DNA of 15,204 nt from a virus (taxonomy: Duplodnaviria > Heunggongvirae > Uroviricota > Caudoviricetes), in the IMG/VR virus record IMGVR_UViG_2913177423_000006, positions 1 to 15,204 of that record; one strand, written 5' to 3'. Below the pieces are notes generated by a model. It did no database searches and had not been told where the DNA came from. It saw only the letters and a program-made list of their open reading frames with translations. The position numbers and the translations under genes are program-made. Positions 1-14,958 of this stretch are shown here, in pieces; the stretch's first letter is position 1; each line of letters starts with the position of its first letter.

Positions 1-555
1 ATGCTTATTGGCTATGTACGCGTATCAACAAATGACCAGAACACCGATCTACAACGTAATGCGTTGAACTGTGTAGGATGTGAACTGATTTTTGAAGACA
101 AGATAAGCGGTACGAAGTCCGAAAGGCCCGGACTGAAAAAACTGCTCAGGACATTATCGGCAGGTGACACACTGGTTGTCTGGAAGCTGGATCGGCTGGG
201 GCGTAGTATGCGGCATCTGGTCATTCTAGTTGAGGAGTTGCGCGAACGTGGCGTTAATTTTCGCAGCCTGACGGATGCTATTGATACCAGCACACCGATG
301 GGGCGTTTTTTCTTTCATGTGATGGGTGCCTTGGCTGAAATGGAACGAGAACTGATTGTTGAACGAACAAAAGCTGGACTGGAAGCTGCTCGCGCGCAGG
401 GACGAATTGGTGGACGTCGTCCCAAACTTACACCAGAACAATGGGCGCAGGCCGGGCGATTAATTGCATCAGGCGTTCCTCGCCAAAAGGTGGCGATCAT
501 CTATGATGTTGGTATATCGACACTGTATAAGAAGTTTCCGGTTGGAGATAAATGA
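1..555 (+). CDS. Serine-recombinase DNA invertase (Gin/Pin/Cin/Hin family), complete 184 aa
   Basis: Starts exactly at window position 1 with MLIGYVRVSTNDQNTDLQ (catalytic Ser in VRVST), conserved WKLDRLGRS and GRFFFHVMGALAEMERE resolvase-domain motifs, and a C-terminal HTH (GGRRPKLT...STLYKK). Near-colinear with Gin/Pin-type invertases as I recall them. Confidence 0.9.
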   Translation: MLIGYVRVSTNDQNTDLQRNALNCVGCELIFEDKISGTKSERPGLKKLLRTLSAGDTLVVWKLDRLGRSMRHLVILVEELRERGVNFRSLTDAIDTSTPMGRFFFHVMGALAEMERELIVERTKAGLEAARAQGRIGGRRPKLTPEQWAQAGRLIASGVPRQKVAIIYDVGISTLYKKFPVGDK

Positions 556-592
556 AACCGTAGCACGTCGTATGCAAGAACGTGCTACGGTT
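556..592. repeat. Perfect 13-bp inverted repeat (aaccgtagcacgt / acgtgctacggtt, 11-nt spacer) directly after the invertase stop codon
   Basis: Read directly: arms at 556-568 and 580-592 are exact reverse complements. No U-tract follows, so it is not a canonical intrinsic terminator; could be an RNA stem-loop or a protein-binding palindrome. Confidence 0.4.
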
Positions 593-718
593 AGCTGGTG
601 AAATGTCGATAGTGCGAGTGTTGAATAATTTCTAGCCGTTATTGATTTTACGTATTTTTGTATGAGATGATTTGCATCTCCTGTCACCGACCATCTATGA
701 CTATACGTCACCATTTCT

Positions 719-763
719 AGGGCTGCTATGTGCCAAGAGCGGTAATTGACAGAGAGCAGCCCT
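719..763. terminator. Possible bidirectional stem-loop between convergent invertase and SIR2 genes
   Basis: Perfect 9-bp stem agggctgct (719-727) / agcagccct (755-763) with a 27-nt loop, lying between the two convergent 3' ends; a T-run follows at 773-786 on the + strand. The loop is large, so assignment is weak. Confidence 0.25.
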
Positions 764-775
764 ATCTCAGTGGCT

Positions 776-3586
776 TTATTTTTTTAGAGATTGCATTCGT
801 TCATTGAATATGTCCAATGTGTCTTGAAATTCAACAAAGCCTCTATCCTTTATAAGGATTTTAATTAAGTTAGGAAAATCACTTTCTACACCAGCTGTAA
901 TGAAATCTAACTCGCCTAATTTATTCGGGATGTTTTCAGAAACAAATTTGTTAATAACCTCAAGAAATTGATCAGGCATGGCACATCCGCTTGCGACTAA
1001 ATGCAAACATTCCATAATATCGCTTACTGTTGCCAGTGGTAGGTTTAAAATATTACTGTTAATAAACTTGTCTATAATGTCAACGACCTCAGGAGAGCCA
1101 ATCCTTTTGATGTTCAATAATAAACTCTTAGTGATGGATCTTTTCCACTTATCATCAAATAATTGTATTTTTGTTAACGCTAATGTTAATAGTTCAGTGT
1201 TTTTGTATTCGTAATTATGATTCTCTGATAATATGTAAATGTTTCGTAAGATATTGGAGTTAATTACATGCTGGTCATAACCATTTAACTCTCCTGTATT
1301 GATTTTTATAAGTATTACATCCAGGATTTTTAACATATCATCATGGGATTTTTGATACAAAAACTCATTCACAGCTAGAAGATTATGTATGTTTTCATAA
1401 ATATTTATGTTATTAGTTCTGCCTTCTAACAAAGGAAGCAAACCATTTATTATTTTCTTTAACTGGTTTGAACTCCACGGAACACATCCTAATATAATCA
1501 ATAAATTATTGGTCCATCGATCTATTGAAGTGGTATGAATAAAATTTTTATTTTTCAACCTAATCAGGTTGCATATGTTTTCGAGAGAGTTGAGTAAATA
1601 TTTCTTAATATGGTGAACTTCTCTTTTGTCAAGTTTGCTGGTGCTGATTATTATTTTGTCTTTTATTACCTTACTTAAAAATTTTTTGAGTTTTTCTGTC
1701 TCGCAGTATTTTATTAACATAAATAGATCGATTCTATTAACATAGAATATCTCTTCGCATAGATAGTGTTCGAGGCTACTAAGAATATTAAATTCGAAAA
1801 ATTGTTTAACCTCTTTATATTCTTCAATTAAAATTTCGTTGCCTAAAATGAAATACACATAAGGGTACAGTTTCGCTCTTGTTTTAAATTCATCATTGGA
1901 AAATGCTATTCCACCACTCTTTCTTATTTGTGAGTACCCTAAATTCTTCTTCGATTCAACGTCAAATCGATAGTAAGCTTTGTATATTTCATTAAATTCA
2001 AGCATCTTTACTAATTCTTGTAGCTCACTTTGCACCCCCCGTGGAAAATCAATTATTTTACTTTTAAACTCAAATGGAGTATGGCTTTCCATTATTGATT
2101 TACAATCTTCATCAATGTCCTTACCGTTACAGTGTAAATCCGACTTCAACATCCTGTAAGCATAATCAAAATTAGACATGTGAATGGTGGCGAGAATATA
2201 GTTTCTCTCATTAAGATGAAGCTTTACTTTCGAAATAAGAATATCGAGAAGTTTGCCATATTCCTTGTTAATAAGAAGTATTTCAGCATTATCCTTTGAA
2301 TAAGCGAAAGAAATCTTATTGTATAGCTCAGACTCTAATTCTGAAGAACTAATCACCTCATACAGTTTCGAGTCATAACTAACTGTATTTATAAATGCCT
2401 TTTCCAAAATAGATGAGAATGTCTTTTTTAAGTGAGTATTTTTACTCAAAATGTCATTAAGGTATATGCTATTTATTTTCCTGCTATACTCGTCATAATC
2501 AGTCGTCAAAATATTATTGTGGGAGGTTAGTTTAACCCCAGACTTATCATAATCAATGGTACTATTAGTTAATTTTTTACTGATCTGCTCAGGGAGCAAT
2601 ACTTTGTATTGTGTTAATGCTTTTAGTTTGCTATCAACATATTTATTTATTTTTTTTGTTACAATACATTGAATATCATTCTTCAATTTATTTTTATCAA
2701 AATCAGACATTCTCAGGTCATCTTCTATTTTTTTTACCTTTGACTCAGTATAGATCAGGGTCCTCTTTATAAACTCATCTTGGTTTTTAACAAGCTTGAA
2801 ATCACTGAAAAATTTTGAATAAAGATCATGATAGCTAATGTCAGTATTCATCGGTGTCAACAAGGATATCCCATGATTTCTTAAGTAAAGAGCCTGGGCT
2901 GCATCATGATTTTTCTGGAGCAAATATTTTCTTGGTGTTGCTTTTGATATAGTTGTAACCCATGAAACAATCTGTTTTAAATCATAATCACTATAAGAGT
3001 ATCCTAAAAACACAACAGTGTTTGTTGAGAATATTCCTTTTATAAAATTTTCGATAAGTGGAAAATTTTGGCTGTACTGTAAGTAATCATCCTCTTTAAA
3101 AACAAAATTATTCTGTCGAAAATCCCCATGCATCTTTATAATTTTCTTGTCCAAATGACTTTGTGCCAGGTCCACGTCAGAACTAACTAAATCATAAGCC
3201 AATCCTATGTCTTGTGCAGTTTTTTCAAGCAAACTATCCCAGTTGGTTGTAATTATATAGTGGGGGTTTAATTCAAATAGCATCTTATGAAAAAGACTTG
3301 GTTTCAAATCTCTAATTATTGATTTGACTTTTTTAACATAAGAGTTTTGTCCGTATTGAAGAAAGTAAAGTTGGGCTATTTTTAAATAATCATTTTCTTC
3401 AGACAATCCTAAGTCGTCTTTTAGCTCATTTATTAACTCCCTCCAGGTTGGTATTTTTATTAATTCCGTTTCGCTGAATTTAGAAAAACCAGCACCAATA
3501 AAAAGAACTAACTTATTATCTTGACTGGCATTCAATATTTCGTTCAAGTCATATTCAGAAAAAGAAAGTGGATTTAAATTTATCAT
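776..3586 (-). CDS. SIR2-domain protein, 936 aa: N-terminal SIR2-type NAD+-hydrolase domain plus ~650-aa helical C-terminal region; candidate single-gene antiphage defence protein (DSR1/DSR2-like)
   Basis: Long uninterrupted ORF. N-terminus carries SIR2-type motifs: glycine-rich LVLFIGAGFS (res 26-35), IITTNWDSLLE (Asn115), IIKMHGDF (His153), VVFLGYSYSDYDL. Asn-His spacing of 38 residues. The gene is visibly far more AT-rich than its neighbours (by eye, roughly 25-30% GC against about 50%). No partner gene (TIR, HerA, Argonaute) nearby. Confidence 0.8.
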   Translation of the reverse strand: MINLNPLSFSEYDLNEILNASQDNKLVLFIGAGFSKFSETELIKIPTWRELINELKDDLGLSEENDYLKIAQLYFLQYGQNSYVKKVKSIIRDLKPSLFHKMLFELNPHYIITTNWDSLLEKTAQDIGLAYDLVSSDVDLAQSHLDKKIIKMHGDFRQNNFVFKEDDYLQYSQNFPLIENFIKGIFSTNTVVFLGYSYSDYDLKQIVSWVTTISKATPRKYLLQKNHDAAQALYLRNHGISLLTPMNTDISYHDLYSKFFSDFKLVKNQDEFIKRTLIYTESKVKKIEDDLRMSDFDKNKLKNDIQCIVTKKINKYVDSKLKALTQYKVLLPEQISKKLTNSTIDYDKSGVKLTSHNNILTTDYDEYSRKINSIYLNDILSKNTHLKKTFSSILEKAFINTVSYDSKLYEVISSSELESELYNKISFAYSKDNAEILLINKEYGKLLDILISKVKLHLNERNYILATIHMSNFDYAYRMLKSDLHCNGKDIDEDCKSIMESHTPFEFKSKIIDFPRGVQSELQELVKMLEFNEIYKAYYRFDVESKKNLGYSQIRKSGGIAFSNDEFKTRAKLYPYVYFILGNEILIEEYKEVKQFFEFNILSSLEHYLCEEIFYVNRIDLFMLIKYCETEKLKKFLSKVIKDKIIISTSKLDKREVHHIKKYLLNSLENICNLIRLKNKNFIHTTSIDRWTNNLLIILGCVPWSSNQLKKIINGLLPLLEGRTNNINIYENIHNLLAVNEFLYQKSHDDMLKILDVILIKINTGELNGYDQHVINSNILRNIYILSENHNYEYKNTELLTLALTKIQLFDDKWKRSITKSLLLNIKRIGSPEVVDIIDKFINSNILNLPLATVSDIMECLHLVASGCAMPDQFLEVINKFVSENIPNKLGELDFITAGVESDFPNLIKILIKDRGFVEFQDTLDIFNERMQSLKK

Positions 3587-4026
3587 TTTATAACTCTATG
3601 CATGTCTTAAAATTCATTGCTTCCATCAATATTAGCATAATTAAGTATTTCAAATCATAACGATGCTTAATTTATCATTATAATCCATTAACTTGTTCCA
3701 AGTACACCGTCTGCTAGTAATTTCTCCATTAACTGACTTATAAAGTGGGGGACTTCCGTCTCTCTCTCATAACAGACATTCACTACAGTTATGGCAGAAA
3801 GGTATGCAAGCCGGGTGTGGGAAAGTATGAAAGAAAAGAAGACTGCTGCGCCGTTTGTCGTCACATTTATCTTCATTGGCTATGCAAGTCGTAATACAAG
3901 GTGGGACAAAACTGAGACACATAAGGCCTCGCAATGGCTTGCAAGGCTTTACATGTTTTGATGTGGCGGGACGTGTGAGCGCAGTGTTGATGGGGTAATG
4001 CTTTGAATTAGAATCGGATTCTTATA

Positions 4027-4072
4027 ATTCGTAATGCGAAGGTCGTAGGTTCGACTCCTATTATCGGCACCA
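4027..4072 (+). tRNA. 3'-terminal fragment (~46 nt) of tRNA-Thr(CGU), thrW-like; att-type junction, not a complete tRNA gene
   Basis: attcgtaatgcgaaggtcgtaggttcgactcctattatcggcacca gives an anticodon loop ttCGTaa, T-arm gtagg-ttcgact-cctat, 3' acceptor strand tatcggc, discriminator a and CCA. The required 5' acceptor strand gccgata and the D-arm are absent upstream, and the 5' half of the anticodon stem does not pair (tataa vs tgcga). Confidence 0.75.
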
Positions 4073-4237
4073 TTTCAACGTCTTTTCCCGTCTATTAAAA
4101 TCCAACAAACCCGCATATACTCTAGCTTTGAGCGCCCCAGATAGTGTTTTAACGTCTATCAATATCTCCTAAAATCCACGTCTTTTGGGGGGATATTCGG
4201 GGGTATATGCTGTGTGGGCTACTGGAGATACCCCCAA

Positions 4238-5428
4238 ATGAAACTAAATGCCCGTCAGGTCGATACGGCCAAACCGAAAGAAAAACCCTATAAACTGGCC
4301 GATGGTGGTGGGCTTTATCTGCTTGTTAATCCCAATGGTTCCCGGTACTGGCGTTTAAAGTACCGGGTAGCCGGAAAAGAAAAGCTGTTGGCGCTGGGGG
4401 TATATCCCGATGTAACCCTGGCTGATGCCAGGGCGAAACGAGATGAGGCCAAAAGGGGTATGGCTGGGGGGATCGACCCGAACGAAGCGAAGCGGGAAGA
4501 AAAATTGAACCGCGAAGCGCAAATCAAAAACACCTTCGAAGAAATCGCCAGAGAGTGGCATACAGAACGGCAGAAGAAATGGTCTGAGGGGTACGCCTCG
4601 GACATTCTGGAAGCATTCAGTAAAGACATATTCCCTTGGATTGGAAAACGCCCCATCACGGAAATAAAGCCCCTTGATTTGCTGAATACGCTTAAACGCA
4701 TCGAGAATAGGGGAGCGACTGAAAAGGCCCGTAAGGTTCGCCAGTGGTGCGGGGAGGTCTGGAAGTATGCGATCGTTACCGCCCGCGCAGAATATAACCC
4801 CGCCCCTGATCTATCTGTGGCTATGGAAGGACACGAAGGGGAGCACTTCCCCCATCTGGAAGCCGAAGAGTTACCCGAATTTTTCCAGACGCTGGCGACG
4901 GCAAAAAGTAACGTTCAGGTTATTTTGGGGCTGCGTCTGCTTATTCTTGTGGGGTTACGTCCGGTTGAATTACGCGCGGCCCCGTGGTCAGAGATTGATT
5001 TTGATAATGCCTTGTGGGAGATCCCCAAAGAGCGAATGAAGAAAAGACGTCCGCACGTTGTCCCGCTTTCTCGCCAGGCTATGGTTATTCTCGGGCAATT
5101 AAAAGAGTTGTCGGGCCGCAATCCTTTCATTTTTCCGGGCCGGAACGACCCGCGAAAGCCAATGAGTGAAGGAGCAATTAATCAGCTAATAAAGCGACTC
5201 GGGTATAAGGGCAAAGCTTGCGGGCATGGTTTCCGACATACCATGAGCACAATTTTGTATGAGAAAGGGTATAACACCGAATGGATCGAAACCCAGCTTG
5301 CACATGTTGATAAAAATACCATCCGTGGCACATATAATCATGCCCGCTATCTGGATGGACGCCGGGAAATGCTTCAATGGTATGCCGACTATATGGAATC
5401 GCTGGCGAGTGGCAGGGTAAAAGATTAG
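4238..5428 (+). CDS. int: Tyrosine integrase, P4/CP4-57 IntA type (396 aa)
   Basis: N-terminus MKLNARQVDTAKPKEKPYKLADGGGLYLLVNPNGSRYWRLKYR is the classic P4-type integrase arm-binding start; C-terminal catalytic region has HGFRHT and a conserved Tyr in RGTYNHARY. GGAGA Shine-Dalgarno 10 nt upstream of the ATG at 4238; the ORF-track start at 4214 is a GTG extension. Sits immediately downstream of the tRNA fragment. Confidence 0.9.
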   Translation: MKLNARQVDTAKPKEKPYKLADGGGLYLLVNPNGSRYWRLKYRVAGKEKLLALGVYPDVTLADARAKRDEAKRGMAGGIDPNEAKREEKLNREAQIKNTFEEIAREWHTERQKKWSEGYASDILEAFSKDIFPWIGKRPITEIKPLDLLNTLKRIENRGATEKARKVRQWCGEVWKYAIVTARAEYNPAPDLSVAMEGHEGEHFPHLEAEELPEFFQTLATAKSNVQVILGLRLLILVGLRPVELRAAPWSEIDFDNALWEIPKERMKKRRPHVVPLSRQAMVILGQLKELSGRNPFIFPGRNDPRKPMSEGAINQLIKRLGYKGKACGHGFRHTMSTILYEKGYNTEWIETQLAHVDKNTIRGTYNHARYLDGRREMLQWYADYMESLASGRVKD

Positions 5429-5468
5429 AGAAGGTCTAAGACGGGAATACCGCTAAATTAGATGTTAG

Positions 5469-5505
5469 GCGTGGACACTCAGCATCCACGCTTAAACTTT
5501 TTATT
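5469..5505 (+). terminator. Rho-independent terminator downstream of int
   Basis: 7-bp stem gcgtgga (5469-5475) / tccacgc (5485-5491), 9-nt loop, followed by ttaaactttttatt. Confidence 0.6.
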
Positions 5506-5998
5506 ATCATTTTCAATGAATTATGATTTTGGAAATTTTATAAAAAACACCAAGATTACTAATCTATTGATTAATATGAAATATTTCTTTTTTTGATTAT
5601 TAATTGTGCTCTTGATTGTTGTTTTTATGGTGTTAATTTATAAAAATCTTATTTATAGGAATTAACATTATATAGTTGGCACTTTTTGCTAAAATCTGTT
5701 TTTATTGTGTTTTATTTTTATTTCATTTTTGTTGTTGTTTGTTTGATTTTTAGTGTCTTTATATCTGGCTAATTGATTTCACTCAAACCATAAATCCTTT
5801 CAGAGGCTTCTAGAGTCTTCCTGAGGCTTAAATTGACTTAACTAAAAGTCAAGCCCCACATCCCACATACATCTTTTTGACATGCACTTATGGCGTGAAT
5901 AACAATGACTTCATCCAATCTACAGGCATCCTATAAAGTCAATGTCTGTATATAGAAAGATATTACATAACGTTTGAATGTTAATAGCGGGTGTGAAT

Positions 5999-6217
5999 AT
6001 GAGAAATGATGCAATGCAGCTTTTAAACCAAGGAAAAAGATTGATCCGCCTGCCTGAAGTTATGATGCTTACGGGGCGGTGTCGCGCCAGTATTTATAAA
6101 GATATCAATGCAAATGTCTTTCCAAAGCCGATTAAAACCGGCCCGCGTTCTGTCGCATGGGTTGAGGGTGAGATCAGCGACTGGATCGACAACAAAATCA
6201 AAGAGCGCAAAGTGTAA
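5999..6217 (+). CDS. alpA: AlpA/Vis-family phage transcriptional regulator (excision activator-like), ~72 aa
   Basis: RLIRLPEVMMLTGRCRASIYKDINANVFPKPIKTGPRSVAWVEGEISDWI matches the AlpA-family pattern (RLP.V...TG..R.TIY.....FP.P...G.R.V.W...E...W), in the usual position after a P4-type int. Start chosen at the ATG at 5999 (MRNDAMQ...); the ORF-track start at 5978 lacks an SD. Confidence 0.75.
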   Translation: MRNDAMQLLNQGKRLIRLPEVMMLTGRCRASIYKDINANVFPKPIKTGPRSVAWVEGEISDWIDNKIKERKV

Positions 6218-6416
6218 ATCTGATTTTATTCAGAGATGAATATGATTTATTTGAATGCTAAGGATTTTGTGTATTCTTTTTGTTGTAAATACTCGTAGCA
6301 TGGGGAGTTGGCAGTATTTATTCAGTATTAGGTTAAGTGGTTACAAAATACCAGGCAATGCCGGTTTATGCAGTGTTTAATATATTTGTTGCTGGCGAAA
6401 ATTTACGGAAAATTAA

Positions 6417-7289
6417 ATGAACATTACTGATATTATCAGCCATCGCGTATATCGTGATGCGGATCTTGCTGTCATTAATAACACGGCATTTATTCAGCCT
6501 TATGACGGTTGTCACCGTGGTTTGTATGAAATGCGCGTTATTGAACTTTATCGCCTGAATAAAATGATGCACCTTACCCACGAATATAAATCTATTTCCG
6601 GGGAAAGCGTAGGCATTCCGGCGACTAAAGAGGAACTGTTTACACTGGTTAATAAAGGGCATGAACTTTGCCAGTCTGAACGGGAAAAGCTGGCGGCACT
6701 TGAAGCAGAATTGCAGCGTCTGCCAAGCCCGGCTGTAATTCCTGCGCCGCAGACGATTAAAGAAGCACAGCAGGCCCGTAAATCACTAGAAGATGAAAGA
6801 TTCAGACTGCATCACGCAGCAATTAAAAATCAAGTCAAGGCACAGCAGGAAGAGTTATCCATCAGACAAAACATTCTGGCATTGCTCGCGCCGGTTATTG
6901 ATGTGTTGTTGGCCGTGGAAGATGTGGAACTGCTCGATCTGCGCCGTTCCCTGCCTAAGTCATCCCTCGATGCTAAGGCATTCAAAAAGGCGATTTCTGA
7001 AATTGAGTGTGCTGACCTTGCCTGGCAGAAAATGGATAAACTGGAGATTGCCCTTAACAAGGTGGTGAACAACTGCACATATCGCCCGGAAGGAAGCATT
7101 AATCCCCGTTTTGTTAACCCTCTTAATGAAGATAAGCGGGAACGCGCCGAAATATCACGCGATTATTACAGCTCTGAAATGGCCTTTATTCATACGGTGA
7201 TGAGTGCAGATGAATATTTAAATTATATGTTGCCGATCCGTCACCAGCAGCGCGCGCAACGACTCACATTAGAAAGAAATATCAACTAA
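6417..7289 (+). CDS. Hypothetical 290-aa protein with a central coiled-coil-like region; possible scaffold-like partner of the downstream capsid-family gene
   Basis: Clean ORF whose stop lies 10 bp before the next gene, which has an AAGGAAG SD. Middle segment (ELCQSEREKLAALEAELQRL ... QVKAQQEELSIRQNILALL) is heptad-like. No family recognised by eye; functional call is inference from adjacency and size only. Confidence 0.6.
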   Translation: MNITDIISHRVYRDADLAVINNTAFIQPYDGCHRGLYEMRVIELYRLNKMMHLTHEYKSISGESVGIPATKEELFTLVNKGHELCQSEREKLAALEAELQRLPSPAVIPAPQTIKEAQQARKSLEDERFRLHHAAIKNQVKAQQEELSIRQNILALLAPVIDVLLAVEDVELLDLRRSLPKSSLDAKAFKKAISEIECADLAWQKMDKLEIALNKVVNNCTYRPEGSINPRFVNPLNEDKRERAEISRDYYSSEMAFIHTVMSADEYLNYMLPIRHQQRAQRLTLERNIN

Positions 7290-7298
7290 GGAAGAATT

Positions 7299-8306
7299 AT
7301 GTCTTATGTAACACCAGATTATTTAACGCAGTATCACGAAAACCTGATTAAGTCTTTTAATATTAAATATAAAAACGAAGATACGGGGTATTTCACCATA
7401 TCACAGCCGGAAAAAGCATCTCCGGATGCATGGGGATGTTCCACGCTTGATGTTAAAGGCTCGTCCTGGCTGATTGATAATATTTCATTACTGGACATTA
7501 CCGGTGCGGATGGCACGACGATCACCATCGGTGATGGTTCCCTTTATACAGGCCGTGCAAAGGAAGGTCGCTTTCATAAGAAACTAAAAACCAACGGAAC
7601 ACCTTTTTTATTATCAGAAACGGATTCCTGCGCCTCATTGACTTATGAAGAAATGGCGGTAATGGCAAACGCGAAAAATTTCAGTAATGAAATGATCATT
7701 TTTTTCAAGAAGGCCGTGGTGCGGGATATGCTCCGTATTGGATTTAACGGCAAGATGATTGCCGAAAATACCAACCCGGAACAATATAAAAACGGCGAAG
7801 ATATCAATATTGGCTGGCACTCGCTGGCAAAAACATTCAATAACGGTTCACAAATTATTTCTGATGCTTTCGCACTGGGGAAAGGGGGTGATTTTGCCGA
7901 TGTTCACGATCTGGCTGATTGCCTCATCACGTCAAAAATCCCCGAAGGTCAGCGCGAAGATCCGGGCCTTGTGGTGATGGTTGGCGCGCAGCTTGCCGCC
8001 CGCGAACGCCTGAAACTGTTCAACATGGCCGATCAACCACTGACGCTGACGGCGGGGGATATGTTGACAAGCAGTGTCGCCGGTCGTTTTGCCTTTATCC
8101 CGCCGTTTATGCCGGGTAAGCGCCTGGCTGTTACGACGCTGAAAAATTTGCAGATCCTGACGCTGAAACACAGCCAACACTACCGCGCGGAGGATATCCC
8201 GCAACGAGGTGTTTATGAGCATGGCTATTTACGTGAAGAAGGTTACGCGCTGGGGGATGGCTATCTTTACGCGGCCAGCGATGAGAACGCCGTGACGCTG
8301 GTTTAA
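7299..8306 (+). CDS. P2 GpN-like major capsid-family protein homologue (335 aa)
   Basis: Colinear motif matches to my recollection of P2 GpN: RIGFNG vs AGFNG; NIGWHSL vs AVGWLQK; LGKGGDFADVHDLAD vs VGKGGDYASLDALVMD; EDPGLVVMVGAQLAA vs EDPDLVVIVGRQLLA; TTLKNLQI vs ITKLENLSI. AAGGAAG SD 5 nt upstream. Recalled-sequence comparison, not a search, so moderate confidence. Confidence 0.55.
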   Translation: MSYVTPDYLTQYHENLIKSFNIKYKNEDTGYFTISQPEKASPDAWGCSTLDVKGSSWLIDNISLLDITGADGTTITIGDGSLYTGRAKEGRFHKKLKTNGTPFLLSETDSCASLTYEEMAVMANAKNFSNEMIIFFKKAVVRDMLRIGFNGKMIAENTNPEQYKNGEDINIGWHSLAKTFNNGSQIISDAFALGKGGDFADVHDLADCLITSKIPEGQREDPGLVVMVGAQLAARERLKLFNMADQPLTLTAGDMLTSSVAGRFAFIPPFMPGKRLAVTTLKNLQILTLKHSQHYRAEDIPQRGVYEHGYLREEGYALGDGYLYAASDENAVTLV

Positions 8307-8477
8307 AACCTGCTGCAGTACAGCCAGCTTTGACAGTGTTGACCAGATAAAAGAAAACCCCCTCACCGGAACGAACAAGAAACGATGAGAGGGTTTATCA
8401 GGAAGATGATTCTACGCGATGAATTATACCGGGATACAACCGATGCTTACCAGCATAACCACACGACGTAAAAGGGG

Positions 8478-8663
8478 TTATTCCTTTATCGTGTCCAGTT
8501 TCTTACGGCGTTGGCGGCGCTTTATCTCACCCTTTGCCGCAGTTACTAAGAAACCGGCTGTACTTTCTCCAGTTTCCTTTAACTGTTCTATATCCTCCAT
8601 AACCTCATGGGGGATTCTGACGGTGGTCATTTGCGATTTTGCATTCTTCGCACCTGTTGCCAT
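8478..8663 (-). CDS. Ribbon-helix-helix (CopG/Arc-like) DNA-binding protein, 61 aa
   Basis: Minus-strand translation MATGAKNAKSQMTTVRIPHEVMEDIEQLKETGESTAGFLVTAAKGEIKRRQRRKKLDTIKE has the RHH beta-strand/helix pattern (TTVRIP.E....IE.L). GGAGA SD 6 nt upstream of the ATG at 8663. Divergent from the small-gene operon. Confidence 0.5.
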   Translation of the reverse strand: MATGAKNAKSQMTTVRIPHEVMEDIEQLKETGESTAGFLVTAAKGEIKRRQRRKKLDTIKE

Positions 8664-8787
8664 TACTGTTCTCCACTCGAATAGGTGTATTTCAGTATAC
8701 GCAACTAAAAAACAGAAAAAAAGACTTGAAGTGTATTTCACCATACGTGTAGGATTGATTTGCAAGGTGACATACACCTGTAAAGTA

Positions 8788-8820
8788 AAGCCCGGCAGTG
8801 TGGGGACACTAACCGGGCTT
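8788..8820 (+). promoter_or_regulatory. Strong nested hairpin/palindrome in the divergent control region upstream of the small-gene operon
   Basis: Outer stem aagcccgg (8788-8795) / ccgggctt (8813-8820), inner stem agtgt/acact with gggg loop. No U-tract follows, so it is more likely an operator or structured leader than a terminator. Confidence 0.35.
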
Positions 8821-8849
8821 CTGACCAACACGTTAACAGGACTAACGCT

Positions 8850-9053
8850 ATGGCTAAGCCGAAGTGTAACCAAACTCACCCTAAAAATCGCGTATTTCTC
8901 TTTCTTGCGGTATCAAGGGCTGACATGCAGGACAAACCACACCGCGAACAAATCACCGCGTACAGCGAACAGGAAGCCCGTTCCATGCTGGCCGGTCGCT
9001 TTATCCTCTGCTTTGCTGGCTGTCTGCCGGTTCAGGAGGCGCGCCATGTTTAA
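8850..9053 (+). CDS. Possible small leader ORF (67 aa, or 42 aa from ATG at 8925); stop overlaps next gene's start (ATGTTTAA)
   Basis: Open frame whose TAA (9051-9053) overlaps the ATG at 9046. No recognisable domain; C-terminal hydrophobic stretch RFILCFAGCLPV. May be non-coding leader. Confidence 0.3.
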   Translation: MAKPKCNQTHPKNRVFLFLAVSRADMQDKPHREQITAYSEQEARSMLAGRFILCFAGCLPVQEARHV

Positions 9054-9294
9054 CCCACTGGACAACCGTAAAGCGGCGGCGCTTAACCCGTTCCACGATG
9101 ACTGTTACGATCCGCCAGCCTTTATTAAACCGGGTTCAAAAGTAGTGGTTGAAATTGATTCCCGTGAAATGGAAGTCGCTATTCTAGCCGCTTATGACTA
9201 CGGACTGGACGCGCTGAACGACGATGGCCGGGAAGAGCTTAACCGCTTAATTGCTGACCTGAAAGACCAGATAACGGAGGCGCGGTATGCATAA
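9046..9294 (+). CDS. Hypothetical small protein (82 aa), first gene of the translationally coupled operon
   Basis: AGGAGG SD 6 nt upstream of the ATG at 9046. Stop overlaps the next start (ATGCATAA at 9287-9294). The ORF-track start at 8419 is a stop-free upstream extension. Confidence 0.65.
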   Translation: MFNPLDNRKAAALNPFHDDCYDPPAFIKPGSKVVVEIDSREMEVAILAAYDYGLDALNDDGREELNRLIADLKDQITEARYA

Positions 9295-9712
9295 TCTGCT
9301 TAATTCACCGTTGCCAGTGTCTATGGATCTCTTTCAGGCTGGCGAGATGTGCGGGCATTTTGTCGCGCGGTTAACGGATGAAAGTTGTGTTGACGAGACT
9401 GAACGCGTCGCACTTTGCGGACGTCTGGCTTTTGCCCTGCGTTCTCTTTCATCTCTTTGTGATACAGACTATCCATCGCATATCCAGGCGCAATTAACCG
9501 CGACTGCTATTCCTGCTCCCTGCGTACCTGATGAGTGGATCGACGCGACGATCATGACGGGCTATTGCACCGCCTTAAATGATGCGCTGCTTAGTCGCTC
9601 CCTTCGTATGGACGTTGAAACACAATTACGCTGGCTTTTGCATGACATGATTAATTTACTTGTCAGATATCTGAAACAGCCTTGTATTAAGGCGGGAGTA
9701 GATCATGTCTGA
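9287..9712 (+). CDS. Hypothetical Cys-rich protein (141 aa)
   Basis: Start overlaps the previous stop and its own stop overlaps the next start (ATGTCTGA at 9705-9712). No family recognised. Confidence 0.6.
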   Translation: MHNLLNSPLPVSMDLFQAGEMCGHFVARLTDESCVDETERVALCGRLAFALRSLSSLCDTDYPSHIQAQLTATAIPAPCVPDEWIDATIMTGYCTALNDALLSRSLRMDVETQLRWLLHDMINLLVRYLKQPCIKAGVDHV

Positions 9713-10112
9713 AATTATGCTCACACCGTTTCACGTTGACCGCCATTTTTACGATCTGGTTTACGGTGCTTCATTTTTTGCGGATGCATTACCTGCAATG
9801 AATGATATCAAGCAGCAGCGGCTTTATTGTCGATTATTGCAATTAAATCTGGTTGTTTTATTTGAAAAACGGTCGCGGGATATTCCCCCAATTCAGTCGA
9901 GTAAAATAAAAATCGCTGATGAGGTTATATTTCTTAATGTCGATAATATTTATCATGCGCTTTCCCTGACTGCCGGGCTGATAAGTCAGGATATCAGTAA
10001 GGGGATTGAAAAAGAACTGGCTGAATATATCAGGGATATTATTAGTATTATTTTTAATGAAATGCGAATGCAGATGGTTGATTATGATCCCTATGAAATG
10101 TGGGACGACTAA
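9705..10112 (+). CDS. Hypothetical protein (135 aa), acidic C-terminus
   Basis: Translationally coupled to the upstream gene; no family recognised. Confidence 0.6.
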   Translation: MSEIMLTPFHVDRHFYDLVYGASFFADALPAMNDIKQQRLYCRLLQLNLVVLFEKRSRDIPPIQSSKIKIADEVIFLNVDNIYHALSLTAGLISQDISKGIEKELAEYIRDIISIIFNEMRMQMVDYDPYEMWDD

Positions 10113-10199
10113 AACAATAATCGATTTATAAGAACTGAAAAACATTTAATTATAACCGTATTTTAACGGGGAGTAATTACGCCCCTGTAAGGAAAATAT

Positions 10200-10469
10200 A
10201 TGTCTGATTTGAATACCATTGCTGTTAATAGTGCTGAAAAATATCTTAGCCTTGAGTGCTTCCATAAACTCAACCGCGCAAGGAATGTTTCATTCCAGAT
10301 GCATTTACAGATCCGTCAGTGTGAGATAAACGGCCTGCCACTTTTATGGATTCCAGATATTTTCAGCTATATCAGCGAAGACATATCCGCCGTTCTGGAA
10401 GAAGCCAAAGTACTTGGCCTTTGCGATAAGTTCACAGGCGAAGCCCGGATCGGTCAGGTCAGTCTTTAA
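10200..10469 (+). CDS. Hypothetical protein (89 aa) upstream of the primase
   Basis: ORF with a GGAAAA region before the ATG; followed by a T-run and GC-rich palindrome gcgccgc-ccgct-gcggcgc (10483-10501) before the primase start. Confidence 0.5.
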   Translation: MSDLNTIAVNSAEKYLSLECFHKLNRARNVSFQMHLQIRQCEINGLPLLWIPDIFSYISEDISAVLEEAKVLGLCDKFTGEARIGQVSL

Positions 10470-10532
10470 TTTTTTGTATTCCGCGCCGCCCGCTGCGGCG
10501 CATTGTCTTACCCATTAATAAAGGTCATACCG

Positions 10533-13265
10533 ATGCAAGGTAAAAAAGTTTCACAGACAGCAGGACGCGCAGCGGGCCAGTGGGAAAATATTCTTGAACA
10601 CCTGGGGATTACTGTTCCTGCGGGTGGTCTTCATGGCCCCTGCCCGATCTGCGGCGGTAAAGATCGTTTTCGCTTTGATAATAAAAAAGGGCGTGGAACC
10701 TGGTTCTGCAACCAGTGCGGCCACGGTGACGGGCTGGATCTGGTCAAACTGGCGCTTTCGCTGGACACCGGGCCAGCCGCTGATCGAGTTGCTGAATTAC
10801 TTCCGGCCCTTCCTCCGCCTGCGGTCATGCAGCCTGCCAGAAAAGAAGCCAGTGACGAAGGTCGCCCACATGACTACTGGCAACGCCTCTTTGCCCGTAC
10901 TCAGCCGGGGGAAAGCCCTTACCTTACGGCGCGGGGGCTGACAGGTTTTGAACTGCCGCTGACCGTTCAGGAGATGAAAACCGCTGGCGGTGTTTTTCCG
11001 GCTGGTTCGCTTTTATTACCGATCACGGACACCGAAGGACGGATGACCGGTGCACAGCTTATCGGCCCGGACAAGGTAAAAGGCTTATGTGCTGGCACCA
11101 GGAAAAAAGGGCGTTTTATCTCTGTCGGGCCGTTCCCGGTGAAAACGCCCGCGCGGATCATTATCTCGGAAGGCTTTGCCACTGCGTTAAGCGCATCCCT
11201 GCTTTCAGAGGGCTGGAGTATTGCGGCGCTGGATAAAGGCAACCTGAAAGACGTTGCGGAGCAAATCCGCCAGAAATGGCCGGACGTGCAGATCGTTATT
11301 GCCGGTGATAATGACTTTTCTGACGGTAAACCCAATCAGGGGAAAGAGTCTGCGATCAAAGCTGCACTGGCCGTTAAGGGATGGATGACCATTCCTCCCG
11401 GACGGATCAAAGTTGACTGGGATGATTACCGCCGTGAATTTGGCCTCCAGCGCGCCCGTGACGCATTCGCGGAAGAACTGCTTAACCCGGCAGACACCGA
11501 AACGCGTTTACCGCATGGTTTCCGCCTGACGAAGGATTATCTTTGGTTTGATCGCCCGCTCAGTGACGGTAGCGAAAGCGGCCAGACTCGCCAGGTGAAG
11601 ATATGTAGCCCGCTCAAAGTGACGGCCATCACCAGCGACGGCGAAGGCGGTAAATTCGGGCGTCTGCTTGAGTGGGAAGACTCCAGCGGATTACGGCATG
11701 AATGGGCGATGCCAATGACAGTGCTTGCCGGAAGCGGTCAGGAGCTGCGGGAGGTTCTGCTTGATAACGGAATGCACTTTATCAGCGTGAACGGCGCGGC
11801 GCGTAGCTATCTGATGGAATACATTTCTAACTGTCGCCCGGTTCGCCGCGTCACCTGCGTTGAAAAAACAGGCTGGTTTAGCGGTGCATATGTTCTCCAG
11901 GATGAGGTGATCGGCAGCGATGCCGGATCGGTGATCCTTCAGTCTGCTATGTCGTCTAAAAATGACTTCCGGGTGAGCGGAACGGCGGCGGAATGGGCGC
12001 AACACGTCGGGCGCTATTGCGCCGGTAATTCCCGCCTGGTGTTCTGCGTCAGTCTGGCGCTGGCCGCGCCGTTGCTGAATCTTATCGGCGTGGGCGGCGG
12101 CGGTTATCACCTTAAGGGCGAATCCACGGACGGCAAGACAACCACAATGAAGGTGGCGGCGTCAGTCTGCGGCGGGCCTGATTTCTGGAAAACGTGGCGG
12201 GCAACCGGAAACGCGCTGGAAGGTATTGCGCTACGCCGTAATGATGCCGCCCTGATGCTGGATGAAATCAGCGAAGTTGACGGCAGAGAGGCCAGCCGGA
12301 TCGCCTATATGCTGGGGAACGGGCAGGGCAAAGCAAGGGGGCGCGTTGATGGCAGCGTCCGCGATCCGGTGACCTGGACATTGCTTTACCTGTCCACCGG
12401 GGAAATCTCTATTGCGGAACATGCCGCCGAAGCCGGAGAAAAGCGAACCGGCGCGGGTGTCGGTGTGCGTATGGTGCAAATACTCAGCGATACCGGAAAA
12501 CATGGCGCTTTCGAAAATCTCCACGGCATGGAAGGCGGTAAAGCGTTTGCGGAATACCTTGAACAGTCCTGTAAACAGTATCACGGTGCGCCGTTCCGCG
12601 AATGGTTGCGCTGGCTGGCGGCAAACCTGACGGAAACTGCGAACCGGGCGCGGGCAATGAAAAAAGAGTATGAACGGACATTATTACCCGAAGATTCCGG
12701 CAAGCAGGTCGGGCGCATTGTGGATCGCTTTGCGCTGTTAGCCGTTGCGGGGGAACTGGCAAGCGAAGCGGGGATCACCGGCTGGCTACCCGGTGAAGCG
12801 TATAACGCTGCAAGAAGCTGTCTGGCGGCATGGCTTAACGATCGCGGACATGCGGCCAACCAGGAAGAAGCCGACGCGCTGGAGAAGGTGCGGCGCTTTA
12901 TTACGGCGAATCAGTACACACGCTTTGCTGACTGGTATGACGAGAAAAACCGCCCGTCAAATATGGTTGGTTTTCGCCGGGTGGAGAAAGGCGGGAACGG
13001 TATCGGCATGAGCAAGAAGGAGAACAGCGGCGATACTGTTAAAGACGGGGACGCCACTAAAGAGCCGGAAACCACATTTTATATCCTGCCCAGCGGATGG
13101 AAGGAGATTTGCGGGACGTCGGACAGCGTTAAAACGGCGAGACTATGCGACGAGGCTGGATGGCTTGTAAAGGATGAAGATCGCCAGCGCCTACAACGTA
13201 CAGTAAGACTACCGGAAATTGGCTTAAAGAAAGTGTATGTGTTCAGCGGCGAAGTGATCGGATAA
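10533..13265 (+). CDS. P4 alpha-type DNA primase/helicase (zinc-binding domain, Toprim primase, P-loop NTPase)
   Basis: Zinc ribbon CPICGGKDRFRFDNKKGRGTWFCNQCGHGDGLD; Toprim motifs IIISEGFATA and VIAGDNDF; Walker A GESTDGKTT and Walker B LMLDEI. Start set at ATG 10533 (MQGKK...); the ORF-track start at 10503 is a TTG. Confidence 0.9.
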   Translation: MQGKKVSQTAGRAAGQWENILEHLGITVPAGGLHGPCPICGGKDRFRFDNKKGRGTWFCNQCGHGDGLDLVKLALSLDTGPAADRVAELLPALPPPAVMQPARKEASDEGRPHDYWQRLFARTQPGESPYLTARGLTGFELPLTVQEMKTAGGVFPAGSLLLPITDTEGRMTGAQLIGPDKVKGLCAGTRKKGRFISVGPFPVKTPARIIISEGFATALSASLLSEGWSIAALDKGNLKDVAEQIRQKWPDVQIVIAGDNDFSDGKPNQGKESAIKAALAVKGWMTIPPGRIKVDWDDYRREFGLQRARDAFAEELLNPADTETRLPHGFRLTKDYLWFDRPLSDGSESGQTRQVKICSPLKVTAITSDGEGGKFGRLLEWEDSSGLRHEWAMPMTVLAGSGQELREVLLDNGMHFISVNGAARSYLMEYISNCRPVRRVTCVEKTGWFSGAYVLQDEVIGSDAGSVILQSAMSSKNDFRVSGTAAEWAQHVGRYCAGNSRLVFCVSLALAAPLLNLIGVGGGGYHLKGESTDGKTTTMKVAASVCGGPDFWKTWRATGNALEGIALRRNDAALMLDEISEVDGREASRIAYMLGNGQGKARGRVDGSVRDPVTWTLLYLSTGEISIAEHAAEAGEKRTGAGVGVRMVQILSDTGKHGAFENLHGMEGGKAFAEYLEQSCKQYHGAPFREWLRWLAANLTETANRARAMKKEYERTLLPEDSGKQVGRIVDRFALLAVAGELASEAGITGWLPGEAYNAARSCLAAWLNDRGHAANQEEADALEKVRRFITANQYTRFADWYDEKNRPSNMVGFRRVEKGGNGIGMSKKENSGDTVKDGDATKEPETTFYILPSGWKEICGTSDSVKTARLCDEAGWLVKDEDRQRLQRTVRLPEIGLKKVYVFSGEVIG

Positions 13266-13362
13266 GACCTGCTGACACCGCTATAACTAACGGTGTTGGC
13301 CAGCTTCCGGTCCTGGAAACATAGCCAGCCAGGAAGAAGTGATCGCACGTATCATATTTTTT

Positions 13363-13575
13363 AGTGGGAACAGTGGGAACATAGGGAACAGACTTGATTT
13401 ATAAAAGTTTTATTTGTTCCCAATTACTGTTCCCATATGGTAACAGGTGGTAATGTATTTTAAATCATATGGTTATGTTGATATGCAAAGCGTTGTTCCC
13501 AGTTGTAAAAGAGAGATGGGAACAGGAAAAAGGTATAAATATCAACACTGTTACCATTGTTCCCACTGTTTCCAC
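13363..13575. repeat. Iteron-like array: about 10 copies of octamer TGGGAACA / TGTTCCCA in both orientations; candidate ori/crr-type primase-binding region or integrase arm-type sites
   Basis: Read directly: direct copies at 13366, 13375, 13384 (9-bp period); inverted copies tgttccca at 13415, 13428, 13494; tgggaaca at 13517; tgttacca / tgttccca / tgtttcca at 13549, 13558, 13567 (9-bp period). Confidence 0.7.
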
Positions 13576-13649
13576 CATTTTTGACAATAACAATGTTTAA
13601 TTTCGGGGAAAATGCTTTTCCCTGGCTGGCTAACATCAAAGGTGAAGAA

Positions 13650-14198
13650 ATGAGCATCAAGAAACGTCCTGATGGAAAATGGCTGGTAGATATCCGCCCC
13701 AATGGGCGGAACGGGAAACGCGTTAGGCGTGTTTTTATGCTTAAGCGTGAGGCTGAAAGTTTCATAAGATATACAAAGTGGCGAGCAATGCAGTCTGAAC
13801 CCACAAGAACAATCAAACCAGCATTTGAATATTATACCCTTTATGAAGCGTGTGAAATCTGGTGGCGTTTAGTGGGTCATACAAGAATTAACGCAGAAAC
13901 TGAAAAGCGTCAGCTTGAAAAGACTATCAGGCAAATGGGGAATCCTTATGTTATGGAACTTAAATATACACAATTAATTCAATTTGTAATGTTACGATTA
14001 TATTCATGCAATAAATATGTTTCTATTCGGCGTGATCTTTACAGGCTGTCAGGTATGTTTCGTGATCTGATAAAAATAGGTGAATATAATTCTAACCCCA
14101 TGAAAGGGGTTGGTTCATTAATGAACGAATGTAACCGACGTTTAGCCATACACGTTAGCAATCCTTGCTGGGTTCAATGGTGGAGAGGGGTAAAATAA
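13650..14198 (+). pseudogene. Tyrosine-integrase N-terminal fragment (arm-binding plus core-binding region, 182 aa), lacking the catalytic domain; probable integrase remnant or stand-alone DNA-binding protein
   Basis: MSIKKRPDGKWLVDIRPNGRNGKRVRRVFMLKREAESFIRYTKW is the typical P2-type integrase arm-binding N-terminus. The ORF stops after ~180 aa with no R..HxxR..Y catalytic region. AGGTG SD before the ATG at 13650. Confidence 0.5.
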
Positions 14199-14217
14199 AT
14201 GGGAGTAATAAGTGATA

Positions 14218-14475
14218 TCAGTTTTGAAGCAATTCTTTTATCATTGTTTTTTGTTCCGGCGTCATCATGTCAATCATTGTTTTTACTGCTTTCTCCCCAG
14301 TCAGCGCGCTGGGGCTTAGCGTATGGGAGAACGTCATATTCATAACGAAGGTATGCCCACATTCAACATTATTACAGGCACAATACATATCAGACAGGTG
14401 TGGATGCTTGCGTACTGTCTTTTTTGTTGTTGAATTACTTCCACACTCAGGACAAACAATTTTATGGCTGCGCAT
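14218..14475 (-). CDS. Ogr/Delta-family zinc-finger transcriptional activator (85 aa)
   Basis: MRSHKIVCPECGSNS...YCACNNVECGHTF gives Cys spacing C-x2-C-x20-C-x-C-x4-C with the NV.C motif of P2 Ogr / P4 Delta. GGTGA SD 5 nt upstream of the ATG at 14475; the ORF-track start at 14529 is probably an upstream extension. Confidence 0.7.
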   Translation of the reverse strand: MRSHKIVCPECGSNSTTKKTVRKHPHLSDMYCACNNVECGHTFVMNMTFSHTLSPSALTGEKAVKTMIDMMTPEQKTMIKELLQN

Positions 14476-14895
14476 AATAATCACCACTCGTAAAAGGCGC
14501 ATTATTATACCACTATTTGCATTAAACAAAAAAAGAAGTTGATATAAATTATCAATAATATCATCGTATTATGTTATTCCATTCTTTCCTTGCTTTTATC
14601 TTAGTGTCACGTAATTTGATTTTTTTTTATTTTAATTTTCATGTGGTTACGTTATTTTTGTTAAAGATTGAATTTTACGAAGACTGAAATTACTGAAATC
14701 CTTTGCAATTGATTGCATTTTTTTCAGTCTCAAATTTCATGTAAAACCCCGTTTAACGCCTGTTCTGGCGGTTCTTTCCTGCAATTTTCCAAACTGAAAA
14801 AATTCTCACTACGTAAACACCGTGGGCGTGCGGGTGAGCGCGGTTTTGGTCCCGCTGGCGTTTGCGTCGTAACAAGTCAGAAACATACAACCACA

Positions 14896-14914
14896 TGTAC
14901 AACTAGCTGTACAT
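14896..14914 (+). promoter_or_regulatory. Putative yefM-type operator: two TGTACA hexamers 13 bp apart, ~45 bp upstream of the antitoxin start
   Basis: catGTACAActagcTGTACAtatg read directly. The E. coli yefM-yoeB operator is known to be built from TGTACA-core palindromes. Confidence 0.5.
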
Positions 14915-14958
14915 ATGCAATACTTACGACGTAATAACTTGGCGGACGGAAAAACACT

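Follow-up and report, generated by a model that had tools for sequence, protein, structure and literature searches.

The stretch analyzed here, subsequently designated the window, comprises 15,204 nucleotides of the Caudoviricetes record IMGVR_UViG_2913177423_000006 (positions 1 to 15,204). It harbors an integrative satellite of approximately 11–12 kb carrying a P4-type gene set, as assessed by Pfam searches and by phmmer comparison with the proteins of phage P4. Within this element, two adjacent open reading frames (ORFs) encode proteins of 290 and 335 residues, which are the subject of this work; the former is designated X and the latter ORF335. The features of the locus are compiled in Table 1. 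Both ORFs had been picked out by an earlier inspection of the letters (the sequence-only reading) and correspond to genuine gene calls, as the same two genes are annotated at NCBI in a 99.6%-identical locus of E. coli, where they are named "hypothetical protein" and "P2 family phage major capsid protein", respectively. The two genes are 9 nt apart and the capsid gene is preceded by an AAGGAA ribosome-binding site.

Table 1. Coordinates of the satellite features in the window and the evidence for each
Feature	Position	Strand	Evidence
attL, last 47 nt of tRNA-Thr (thrW)	4027..4073	+	left satellite end
Tyrosine integrase, P4-int type	4214..5428	+	Pfam Arm-DNA-bind_3, Phage_int_M, Phage_integrase; 44% identity to P4 Int, E 6e-117
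Sigma-70-like promoter candidate upstream of alpA, TTGACA-18-AACAAT	5877..5906	+	consensus scan
AlpA/Vis-type regulator, first gene of the operon with X and capsid genes	5978..6217	+	Pfam Phage_AlpA 1.5e-18
X, 290-aa helical orphan protein, proposed scaffold/size determinant	6417..7289	+	no family match; conserved upstream of capsid gene
Major capsid protein (ORF335), P2 family, HK97 fold, 335 aa	7299..8306	+	PF05125, phrog_70, AlphaFold2 model
Hairpin after capsid gene, candidate terminator for alpA-X-capsid	8357..8395	+	RNA fold of 8300-8410
Icd-like gene, homologue of P4 kil-cI region	8846..9049	+	annotated in 98.7%-identical L001; phmmer vs P4 cI-region ORF 7e-5
Epsilon, helper derepression protein	10200..10469	+	Pfam Derepression PF25738 3e-22; 45% identity to P4 epsilon, 8e-21
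Alpha-type primase-helicase	10503..13265	+	Zn_Ribbon_Prim, Toprim_3, DUF927; phrog_1139 4e-167; 37% identity to P4 alpha primase domain
Origin-like iterons GGGAACA/TGTTCCC, direct and inverted, immediately downstream of alpha	13350..13580	.	sequence, inverted repeats
Ogr/Delta-type late-gene activator, zinc-finger gene	14218..14529	-	gene called Ogr/Delta at L001 and L021
cos-like packaging region, related to the physical right end of ESSI-2-like peduovirus genomes	14679..14844	+	nhmmer profile match

ORF335 matches the family Phage_cap_P2 (PF05125) with an E-value of 1.3e-54 and 186 bits (cutoff 27), covering positions 3–324 of the 327 profile positions, and phrog_70 "major head protein" with 3.3e-72. 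Its sequence also matched P2 gpN as solved in the P4 procapsid (7jw1; 2.6e-12) and the protein of phiRSA1 (7oz4). The AlphaFold2 (AF2) model of ORF335 has a pLDDT of 80.7 and a pTM of 0.82, and the best Foldseek match of this model was again gpN in 7jw1 (E 2.8e-21, TM 0.67–0.79), followed by other HK97-fold capsid proteins including 7oz4, 7rwz and 9gyi. As modeled, ORF335 is a complete HK97-fold capsid protein of the P2 family. Assignment of ORF335 to this family, as put forward in the sequence-only reading, is hence borne out at the level of both sequence and fold, and neither Sid nor Psu homology was detectable.

ORF335 is nevertheless distant from the capsid proteins of phages. With NCBIfam model TIGR01551 ("phage major capsid protein, P2 family") it scored 156.4 bits, which is under the equivalog cutoff of 219.65. 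Judged by this score, it is homologous to the phage equivalog yet outside of it, fitting a separate satellite clade. Identity to P2 gpN amounts to only 23–24%, as compared to 41–49% for the capsid proteins of ESSI-2/HP1-like peduoviruses. In a neighbor-joining tree, the satellite capsid proteins form one clade, which is sister to the ESSI-2/HP1-like capsids, with P2 gpN far outside, and the first database relative sitting in a genuine phage (L018) shares only 45% identity with the window protein. Divergence is unevenly distributed along the protein. Among the satellite capsids, the N-terminal 80 residues exhibit 21–33% identity to the window protein, as opposed to 49–63% for the body. Between satellite and ESSI-2/HP1-like phage capsids the corresponding values are ~20% and 47–52%. 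HK97-fold coat proteins are generally contacted by their scaffolds in the N-terminal region, and in the satellites this segment diverges about as fast as X.

X had no match in Pfam, PHROGs, NCBIfam, PADLOC or the sequences of the PDB. Its AF2 model is of low confidence (pLDDT 65) and consists of 73% helix, including one helix of 52 residues. The predicted helical nature of this protein, which had been described as rich in coiled coils, is therefore supported by the model, but the coiled coil itself goes beyond what the model shows. Likewise, the proposed resemblance to the scaffold(O)-capsid(N) pair of P2 holds for protein size and gene order, but not for homology: X does not match PF05929, and hhalign returned probabilities of 1.3% with P2 GpO, 0.1% with ESSI-2 GpO and 0.1% with an alignment of four GpO members. 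Homology to Sid or Psu was not found by Pfam, PHROGs, NCBIfam and PADLOC scans, by a profile search of the PDB or by hhalign comparison with both proteins. X nonetheless belongs to a family of its own. The X-like proteins of other satellites (273–311 aa) are true homologues, as judged by BLASTP E-values of 8e-17 to 4e-22, and an exhaustive hidden Markov model search of 1.84 billion representative proteins yielded 49 clusters, nearly all comprising 273–300 aa. Where a source is named, it is Escherichia, Salmonella, Pectobacterium, Brenneria, Dickeya, Serratia, Yersinia or Providencia, and every one of these proteins carries the annotation "hypothetical". None of 50,697 phage records contains X, nor do the phage loci examined.

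The element that carries the pair resembles P4 in most of its backbone, but neither the window nor any of the related satellite loci encodes a homologue of Sid or Psu. Of the seven components by which SatelliteFinder recognizes P4-like satellites, int, alpA, epsilon, alpha and delta are present, while sid and psu are absent. The component list was taken from PMC10085698. Four of the five components of Gram-negative phage-inducible chromosomal islands (PICIs), which are defined by int, alpA, pri-rep with the origin downstream, a capsid morphogenesis gene and terS (PMC10085698, PMC10111431), are also found, i.e. int, alpA and primase genes in the same orientation, an origin after the primase gene and a capsid-like gene, but neither terS nor Rpp. 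In addition, no terminase family was matched by the window proteins scanned, and P2 gpM matched nothing in the satellites when used as phmmer query. The further genes of capsid-forming PICIs (cf-PICIs), encoding protease, head-tail adaptor, connector, TerS/TerL and HNH, are missing from the window and the related loci, except for a protease-only gene in Pectobacterium relatives. Judged by its genes, the element would work like a P4-type satellite without being a canonical member.

In related satellites the genes follow a common order, which is alpA, X-like gene, capsid gene, (epsilon/DUF5375), alpha and Ogr/Delta, and the capsid proteins are 46–56% identical. This order was found in satellites of Pectobacterium (L003), Serratia (L004) and Salmonella (L016, L017, L019, L021-23), at the argW site of E. 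coli (L011) and in metagenome contigs (L024-26). When an X profile was used, each satellite locus examined yielded a copy immediately preceding the capsid gene, and the phage loci yielded none; X is also present at loci of Yersinia (L014), Pectobacterium (L013/L015) and Salmonella (L021/L023). In the 10 satellite pairs that were aligned (E. coli, Salmonella, Pectobacterium, Serratia and metagenomes), the two genes are separated by -4 to 37 nt. With respect to the left operon of P4, the pair is located between Vis and the cI/kil early region. Recognizable defense cargo of the related elements, comprising retron Ec48, sce7725/7726, GmrSD and HATPase or AAA genes, is found elsewhere, namely in the interval from Ogr/Delta to int and, as in P4, adjacent to cos, and not at the capsid position. 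The view that the pair occupies an int-proximal cargo position is thus not tenable. From its conservation behind alpA across genera, the pair is a core module of a P4-type satellite lineage lacking Sid and Psu, and not cargo.

The position of the pair bears on the possibility that it serves interference only. According to this explanation, the capsid homologue and X would act as poison subunit or decoy, spoiling the heads of the helper without being needed for satellite particles. The benefit would lie in protection of the host population or in biased packaging. Satellites commonly interfere with their helpers (PMC6092414), and a divergent, assembly-competent HK97 protein is compatible with a capsid mimic. 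However, PADLOC-DB contains no family matching X or the capsid protein at E <=0.01, and the pair forms a constant part of the core operon; it is another site at which true defense cargo varies. A decoy would also have no obvious need for a conserved partner of 290 residues, or for the protease encoded by some members of the lineage (see below). Finally, the lineage retains P4-like genome size and a cos-like site although it lacks Sid and Psu, and should hence need a route to small heads. We consider a function restricted to interference very unlikely. For similar reasons, a role in defense, which had been regarded as equally possible, is no longer on a par with a role in head formation: X and the capsid gene stay together in synteny and are inherited jointly at every satellite locus examined, they occur in at least four enterobacterial genera, and they are under selection, as detailed next.

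Comparison of the window with a 93%-identical E. coli copy yielded ratios of non-synonymous to synonymous substitution rates (dN/dS) of 0.088 for the capsid gene and 0.25 for X. In comparison with the Salmonella copy, the values were 0.11 for the capsid gene (31 non-synonymous and 66 synonymous changes) and 0.17 for X (66 and 81 changes, respectively). These ratios are similar to those of epsilon and delta, and as estimated from them both genes are under purifying selection. Moreover, X and capsid sequences are 82–97% identical between elements whose integrases and AlpA proteins share 40% and 53% identity, respectively, and whose alpha is of a different type. Therefore, the pair was retained through module shuffling. 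As to alpha itself, the DUF927-type protein of the window is replaced by a Toprim_2-type protein (23% identity) in L020 (13681-16350) and L022 (13859-16528), which indicates, at the level of sequence, modular recombination within the satellite lineage. The allele of the window is present in 4 of 5426 complete E. coli genomes and common in Salmonella, and the allele residing at argW was found in 449 of the same 5426 genomes at >=95% identity.

These data also speak to the possibility of a dispensable carry-over, in which the capsid gene would represent a helper late gene captured by recombination, lacking an essential role, and X would be an unrelated satellite gene. There is precedent for this explanation: a capsid gene is present in 21 of 29 reference Gram-negative PICIs and is not required for helper-assisted transfer (PMC10111431), and deletion of c1499 from EcCICFT073 did not restore plaque formation by lambda (PMC6092414). 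In the present case, however, capture looks single and ancient, as the satellite capsids constitute one clade with <=49% identity to any phage capsid, and a dN/dS of ~0.1 has been held between the Escherichia and Salmonella copies of the capsid gene. X and capsid genes are adjacent in all loci and their divergence is correlated (Spearman 0.80–0.85, a value inflated by shared ancestry). The abundance of the argW allele likewise argues against a gene that is merely carried along. A carry-over is thus quite unlikely in our view.

Next to the capsid clade, several observations relate the satellites to a particular group of phages. Several satellites share a non-coding element of 145–165 bp, 72–80% identical, with the physical right end of phage ESSI2_ev015 (L012 30437-30584). 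It is located just after Ogr/Delta and before the cargo, which is the place of cos in P4. A profile built from five satellites and the ESSI2_ev015 terminus detected a full-length, weaker copy in the window (E 5.5e-9, 33 bits) and also matched L001, L019, L020 and L021/L022, with a faint match to the cos flank of P4. When the P4 cos junction and the left end of P2 were compared by BLAST with the window and the satellites, only matches at chance level were obtained. The GenBank record of ESSI2_ev015 itself starts with TCGTCGGCAGCGTCAGATGTGTATAAGAGACAG, which we take to be a remnant of a Nextera adapter in view of its resemblance. The Delta protein of the window shares 57% identity with the Ogr-like protein of ESSI2_ev015, and the genes are 82% identical over 86 nt. 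Furthermore, three Pectobacterium satellites (L003 3563-4072; L013, L015) carry, right after the capsid gene, a gene for a protein of 169 aa that corresponds to the N-terminal protease of GpO. This protein is 50% identical to residues 1–124 of ESSI-2 GpO and lacks the C-terminal scaffolding part. Taken together, capsid clade, cos-like element, Ogr identity and GpO protease point to the same phage group, i.e. ESSI-2/HP1-like peduoviruses, as putative helper, whose terminase would package the satellite. The proposal of a satellite of P2-like helpers is accordingly upheld in so far as the element is a P4-type satellite of peduoviruses, but P2 itself is not the closest phage. The satellite of ~11-12 kb contrasts with 30.6 kb for the helper-type phage, and in E. 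coli ESSI-2/HP1-like prophages occur less often than the satellites (counts of about 29-48 and 41-43 among 5426 genomes).

A lineage that has lost Sid and Psu, the only means of making small heads known for P4, and yet keeps P4 genome size and a cos-like site still needs a route to small heads, and for an element without either protein a role of the pair in forming or redirecting capsids becomes the leading explanation, in agreement with one of the two possibilities that had been raised initially. In the mechanism that we propose, entry of an ESSI-2/HP1-like peduovirus helper into its late phase would be accompanied by expression of alpA, X and the capsid gene. X would serve the capsid protein of the satellite as a dedicated scaffold or size determinant, and both would assemble a small shell on the portal of the helper, for which T=4 is expected given a genome of ~11.5 kb, in comparison to T=7 for ~30 kb. 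Protease, head-completion proteins and tail would be contributed by the helper, as would the terminase that cuts the cos of the satellite. As the small shell would exclude the genome of the helper, the module could interfere with the helper at the same time. Presence of a protease without the scaffold domain in some members is what would be expected if X had replaced GpO as scaffold. The explanation we favor is that the pair stands in for Sid/Psu and makes satellite-sized heads on portal, terminase and tail of the helper; our confidence in it falls a little short of an even balance.

Several points weigh against this mechanism. The cos-like match in the window is weak, and BLAST detected no P2/P4 cos core. 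Most satellites, including the one in the window, do not encode a protease of their own. X exhibits no detectable similarity to the scaffolds GpO, Sid and Psu, its model is of low confidence, and the role proposed for it derives from linkage. Finally, the window has no Ogr/Delta-type site (TGT-N12-ACA) ahead of alpA or X, and expression in the late phase is thus presumed. This motif is not enriched in the window, with 7 occurrences compared to 3.3 expected and 11 of 200 shuffles reaching 7, and 7 of 9 loci lack it in the regions preceding alpA or X; the remaining two (L011, L003) each have one copy within the 450 bp upstream of alpA.

The same genes could also build mixed capsids. Here, the satellite protein would co-assemble with the capsid protein of the helper, for instance in the pentamers, and thereby force a smaller triangulation number, with X serving as chaperone or external cage. 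Such an arrangement is known from SaPIbov5, whose Ccm protein, a homologue of the helper capsid protein, fills the pentamers of T=4 procapsids and converts prolate into isometric heads (PMC8569155). The identity between the bodies of the satellite and the ESSI-2/HP1-like capsids (47–52%) may suffice for co-assembly, and head proteins of the helper must take part in any case, since the window satellite lacks protease, portal and other head genes. On the other hand, the N-terminal 80 residues share only ~20% identity with the phage capsids and co-vary with X, which suggests a private scaffold-coat pair, and the protease-only gene of the Pectobacterium satellites suggests that GpO of the helper is excluded. 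Although mixed capsids appear rather unlikely to us, the sequence data on their own fit mixed and all-satellite shells equally well.

If the favored mechanism of an all-satellite shell is extended from the window to its relatives, a widespread and apparently undescribed satellite lineage would have swapped the external scaffold Sid/Psu for a "half capsid-forming" strategy, i.e. a small shell made from its own capsid protein and the fold-orphan scaffold X, while ESSI-2/HP1-like peduoviruses would still be robbed of portal, protease, terminase and tail. X would then constitute a new class of capsid size determinant. We offer this wider proposal tentatively and regard it as possible, though open to considerable doubt. 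Members of the lineage are found in E. coli, where one allele occurs in ~8% of complete genomes, and in Salmonella, Pectobacterium, Serratia, Yersinia, Dickeya and Providencia.

P4, the textbook satellite, has no capsid gene and shrinks the capsid of its helper with Sid. The lineage described here resembles P4 in its P4-type Int, Vis/AlpA, epsilon, alpha and Ogr/Delta, in the iterons after alpha, the cos-like site and a size of ~11-12 kb, and peduovirus helpers are implied. It differs in lacking Sid and Psu and in carrying its own P2-family capsid gene together with X. Moreover, the cos-like region and Ogr of the window resemble those of ESSI-2/HP1-like peduoviruses rather than P2, and in the sub-type represented by the window int is located upstream and co-oriented, as in PICIs. 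The arrangement of a protein of ~285 aa upstream of the capsid gene is shared with the O-N genes of peduoviruses such as ESSI-2, and the capsids belong to the same family. X, however, is no homologue of GpO, and the satellite capsid protein falls below the TIGR01551 cutoff and is remote from P2 gpN, as outlined above.

Satellite-borne capsid homologues as such are already known. SaPIbov5 likewise encodes a homologue of the HK97-fold capsid protein of its helper, to which its small capsids are due; its DNA is packaged by way of a helper-type cos site (PMC8569155). Sequence family, host and helper of Ccm are unrelated, though, and in the present system a transition from T=7 to T=4 and an obligatory partner X would be expected. 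With a T=7 myovirus as helper, PmCI172 forms heads of T=4 size; it encodes a capsid-like protein, but neither Sid nor CpmAB (PMC6893505), and enterobacterial PICIs have been described with a "capsid morphogenesis" gene (PMC10085698). Gram-negative PICIs share with the window element int, alpA, primase gene, the downstream origin and a capsid homologue within the island (PMC6092414, PMC10111431). They differ in their helpers, which are lambdoid for the EcCICFT073 type (PMC6092414, PMC10111431) and Mu-like for PmCI172, and the window element in turn features a P2-family capsid, epsilon, Ogr/Delta and a peduovirus-type cos-like site, and lacks terS/Rpp. The X family does not feature in the published descriptions of these islands, on which this comparison is based. 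cf-PICIs, e.g. EcCIEDL933 and EcCI2, carry a full set of head and packaging genes and steal tails only (10.1101/2022.09.08.507074, PMC10085698). Both they and the present satellites have their own HK97-fold capsid protein, the present satellites would likewise obtain other virion parts by theft, and the fold of ORF335 matches 9gyi; yet the window element has only capsid gene and X, to which a protease domain is added in some relatives.

A P4-type satellite with a P2-family capsid protein and X was not found described in the literature, subscription-only papers being outside of this search, and the accessible surveys do not mention a capsid gene in P4-like satellites. The Sid/Psu-less P4-type lineage with P2-family capsid and orphan X is thus apparently undescribed. 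On the P4 backbone it represents a common sister lineage, which lacks Sid and Psu and keeps a capsid protein and its partner. If the pair makes satellite-sized heads, this would be a third route to redirection of capsid size in the P2/P4 world, and X would provide a tractable new family of scaffolds or size determinants. The lineage would then also link "capsid-stealing" and "capsid-forming" satellites, as an evolutionary intermediate between P4 and cf-PICIs. In practical terms, five of the seven P4 core components presumably place these elements in the weakest P4-like class of SatelliteFinder. The NCBI pipeline names the satellite capsid gene like that of a phage, so that these elements can be mistaken for prophage remnants. 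In addition, the lineage carries defense cargo such as retron Ec48, GmrSD and sce7725/7726, which it could mobilize between enterobacteria.

Three candidates for a packaged or free form of the satellite were rejected. "Salmonella phage S.Kent 1-2-1" (15.4 kb) turned out to be an ordinary fragment of a P2-like phage with portal, terminase, GpO and capsid genes; Logan/ENA contigs of ~11.5 kb are integrated copies with flanking genes; and the single match in IMG/VR had been called as a provirus in the genome of an isolate.

Regarding signals for expression, the sequence 8300-8410 containing the candidate terminator has a minimum free energy of -23.9 kcal/mol (z -2.2), and its T-run is weak (UUUAUC). 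The spacer between alpA and X (6218-6416) comprises ~200 bp in the E. coli version and contains a small hairpin (~6350-6365). It measures 35 bp in Salmonella and 1–17 bp in other relatives.

The left end of the satellite is defined by the thrW copy listed in Table 1. ARAGORN detected no complete tRNA in the window, which contains only 47 nt of thrW. Comparison of the thrW gene of L020 with the left end by BLAST yielded 94.5% identity over 91 nt, including the flank, and in E. coli Eco_24-2013 the same satellite directly adjoins an intact thrW. Left of this site, the window contains a gene for a Hin/Gin-type serine invertase (1-555, + strand), followed by one for a SIR2_2/ThsA-like protein of 936 aa (776-3586, - strand) in a stretch with ~30% GC. 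Since the satellite ends at the thrW copy at 4027-4073, the SIR2 gene and the invertase belong to a neighboring prophage or island. The SIR2 gene was considered and ruled out as satellite cargo, being left of attL and replaced in a strain with the same satellite: in E. coli JNEC-KY203 a DUF262 gene occupies the SIR2 slot and the invertase is truncated. The stretch looks like a variable defense slot at the end of a prophage with Mu-like tail, situated between thrW and the satellite, and the arrangement implies a tandem array of prophage and satellite at thrW. A match to the Shigella small RNA CssrB in Rfam at 533-589 (+), at the 3' end of the invertase gene, is probably not meaningful (36.7 bits, compared to a gathering score of 76). 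An immunity RNA of the CI/C4 type of P4 was not found by the Rfam search.

Within the satellite, the AlpA protein of the window is homologous to P4 orf88/Vis (phmmer 9e-12, 39% identity). With the Icd-like gene, the left operon enters its early (PLE-like) part. The ORF of 291 aa at 8419-9294 (+) is spurious, as it overlaps three short genes annotated in the near-identical L001, which are a minus-strand gene of the YlcI/YnfO family, the Icd-like gene and a small hypothetical gene. The cluster of GGGAACA/TGTTCCC repeats is probably the equivalent of ori/crr, judging from its sequence and place; in the Serratia satellite L004, GGTAACA repeats are found in the matching region after alpha.

The right part of the element, consisting of a truncated second integrase gene, delta and yefM-yoeB, is conserved in a Salmonella version spanning ~11.3 kb. 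Located at 13557-14198 (+) between the origin and delta, the second integrase gene has a full-length counterpart (321 aa) in E. coli Eco_24-2013, and its Int_N plus Phage_integrase type is also present in the Salmonella satellites L016 and L019. The yefM antitoxin gene (14959-15204, +) is situated at the right end of the satellite, with yoeB past the end of the window, and is kept in the E. coli and Salmonella versions. Just upstream of yefM, at 14896-14913, a palindrome with the sequence TGTACA-N6-TGTACA is located.

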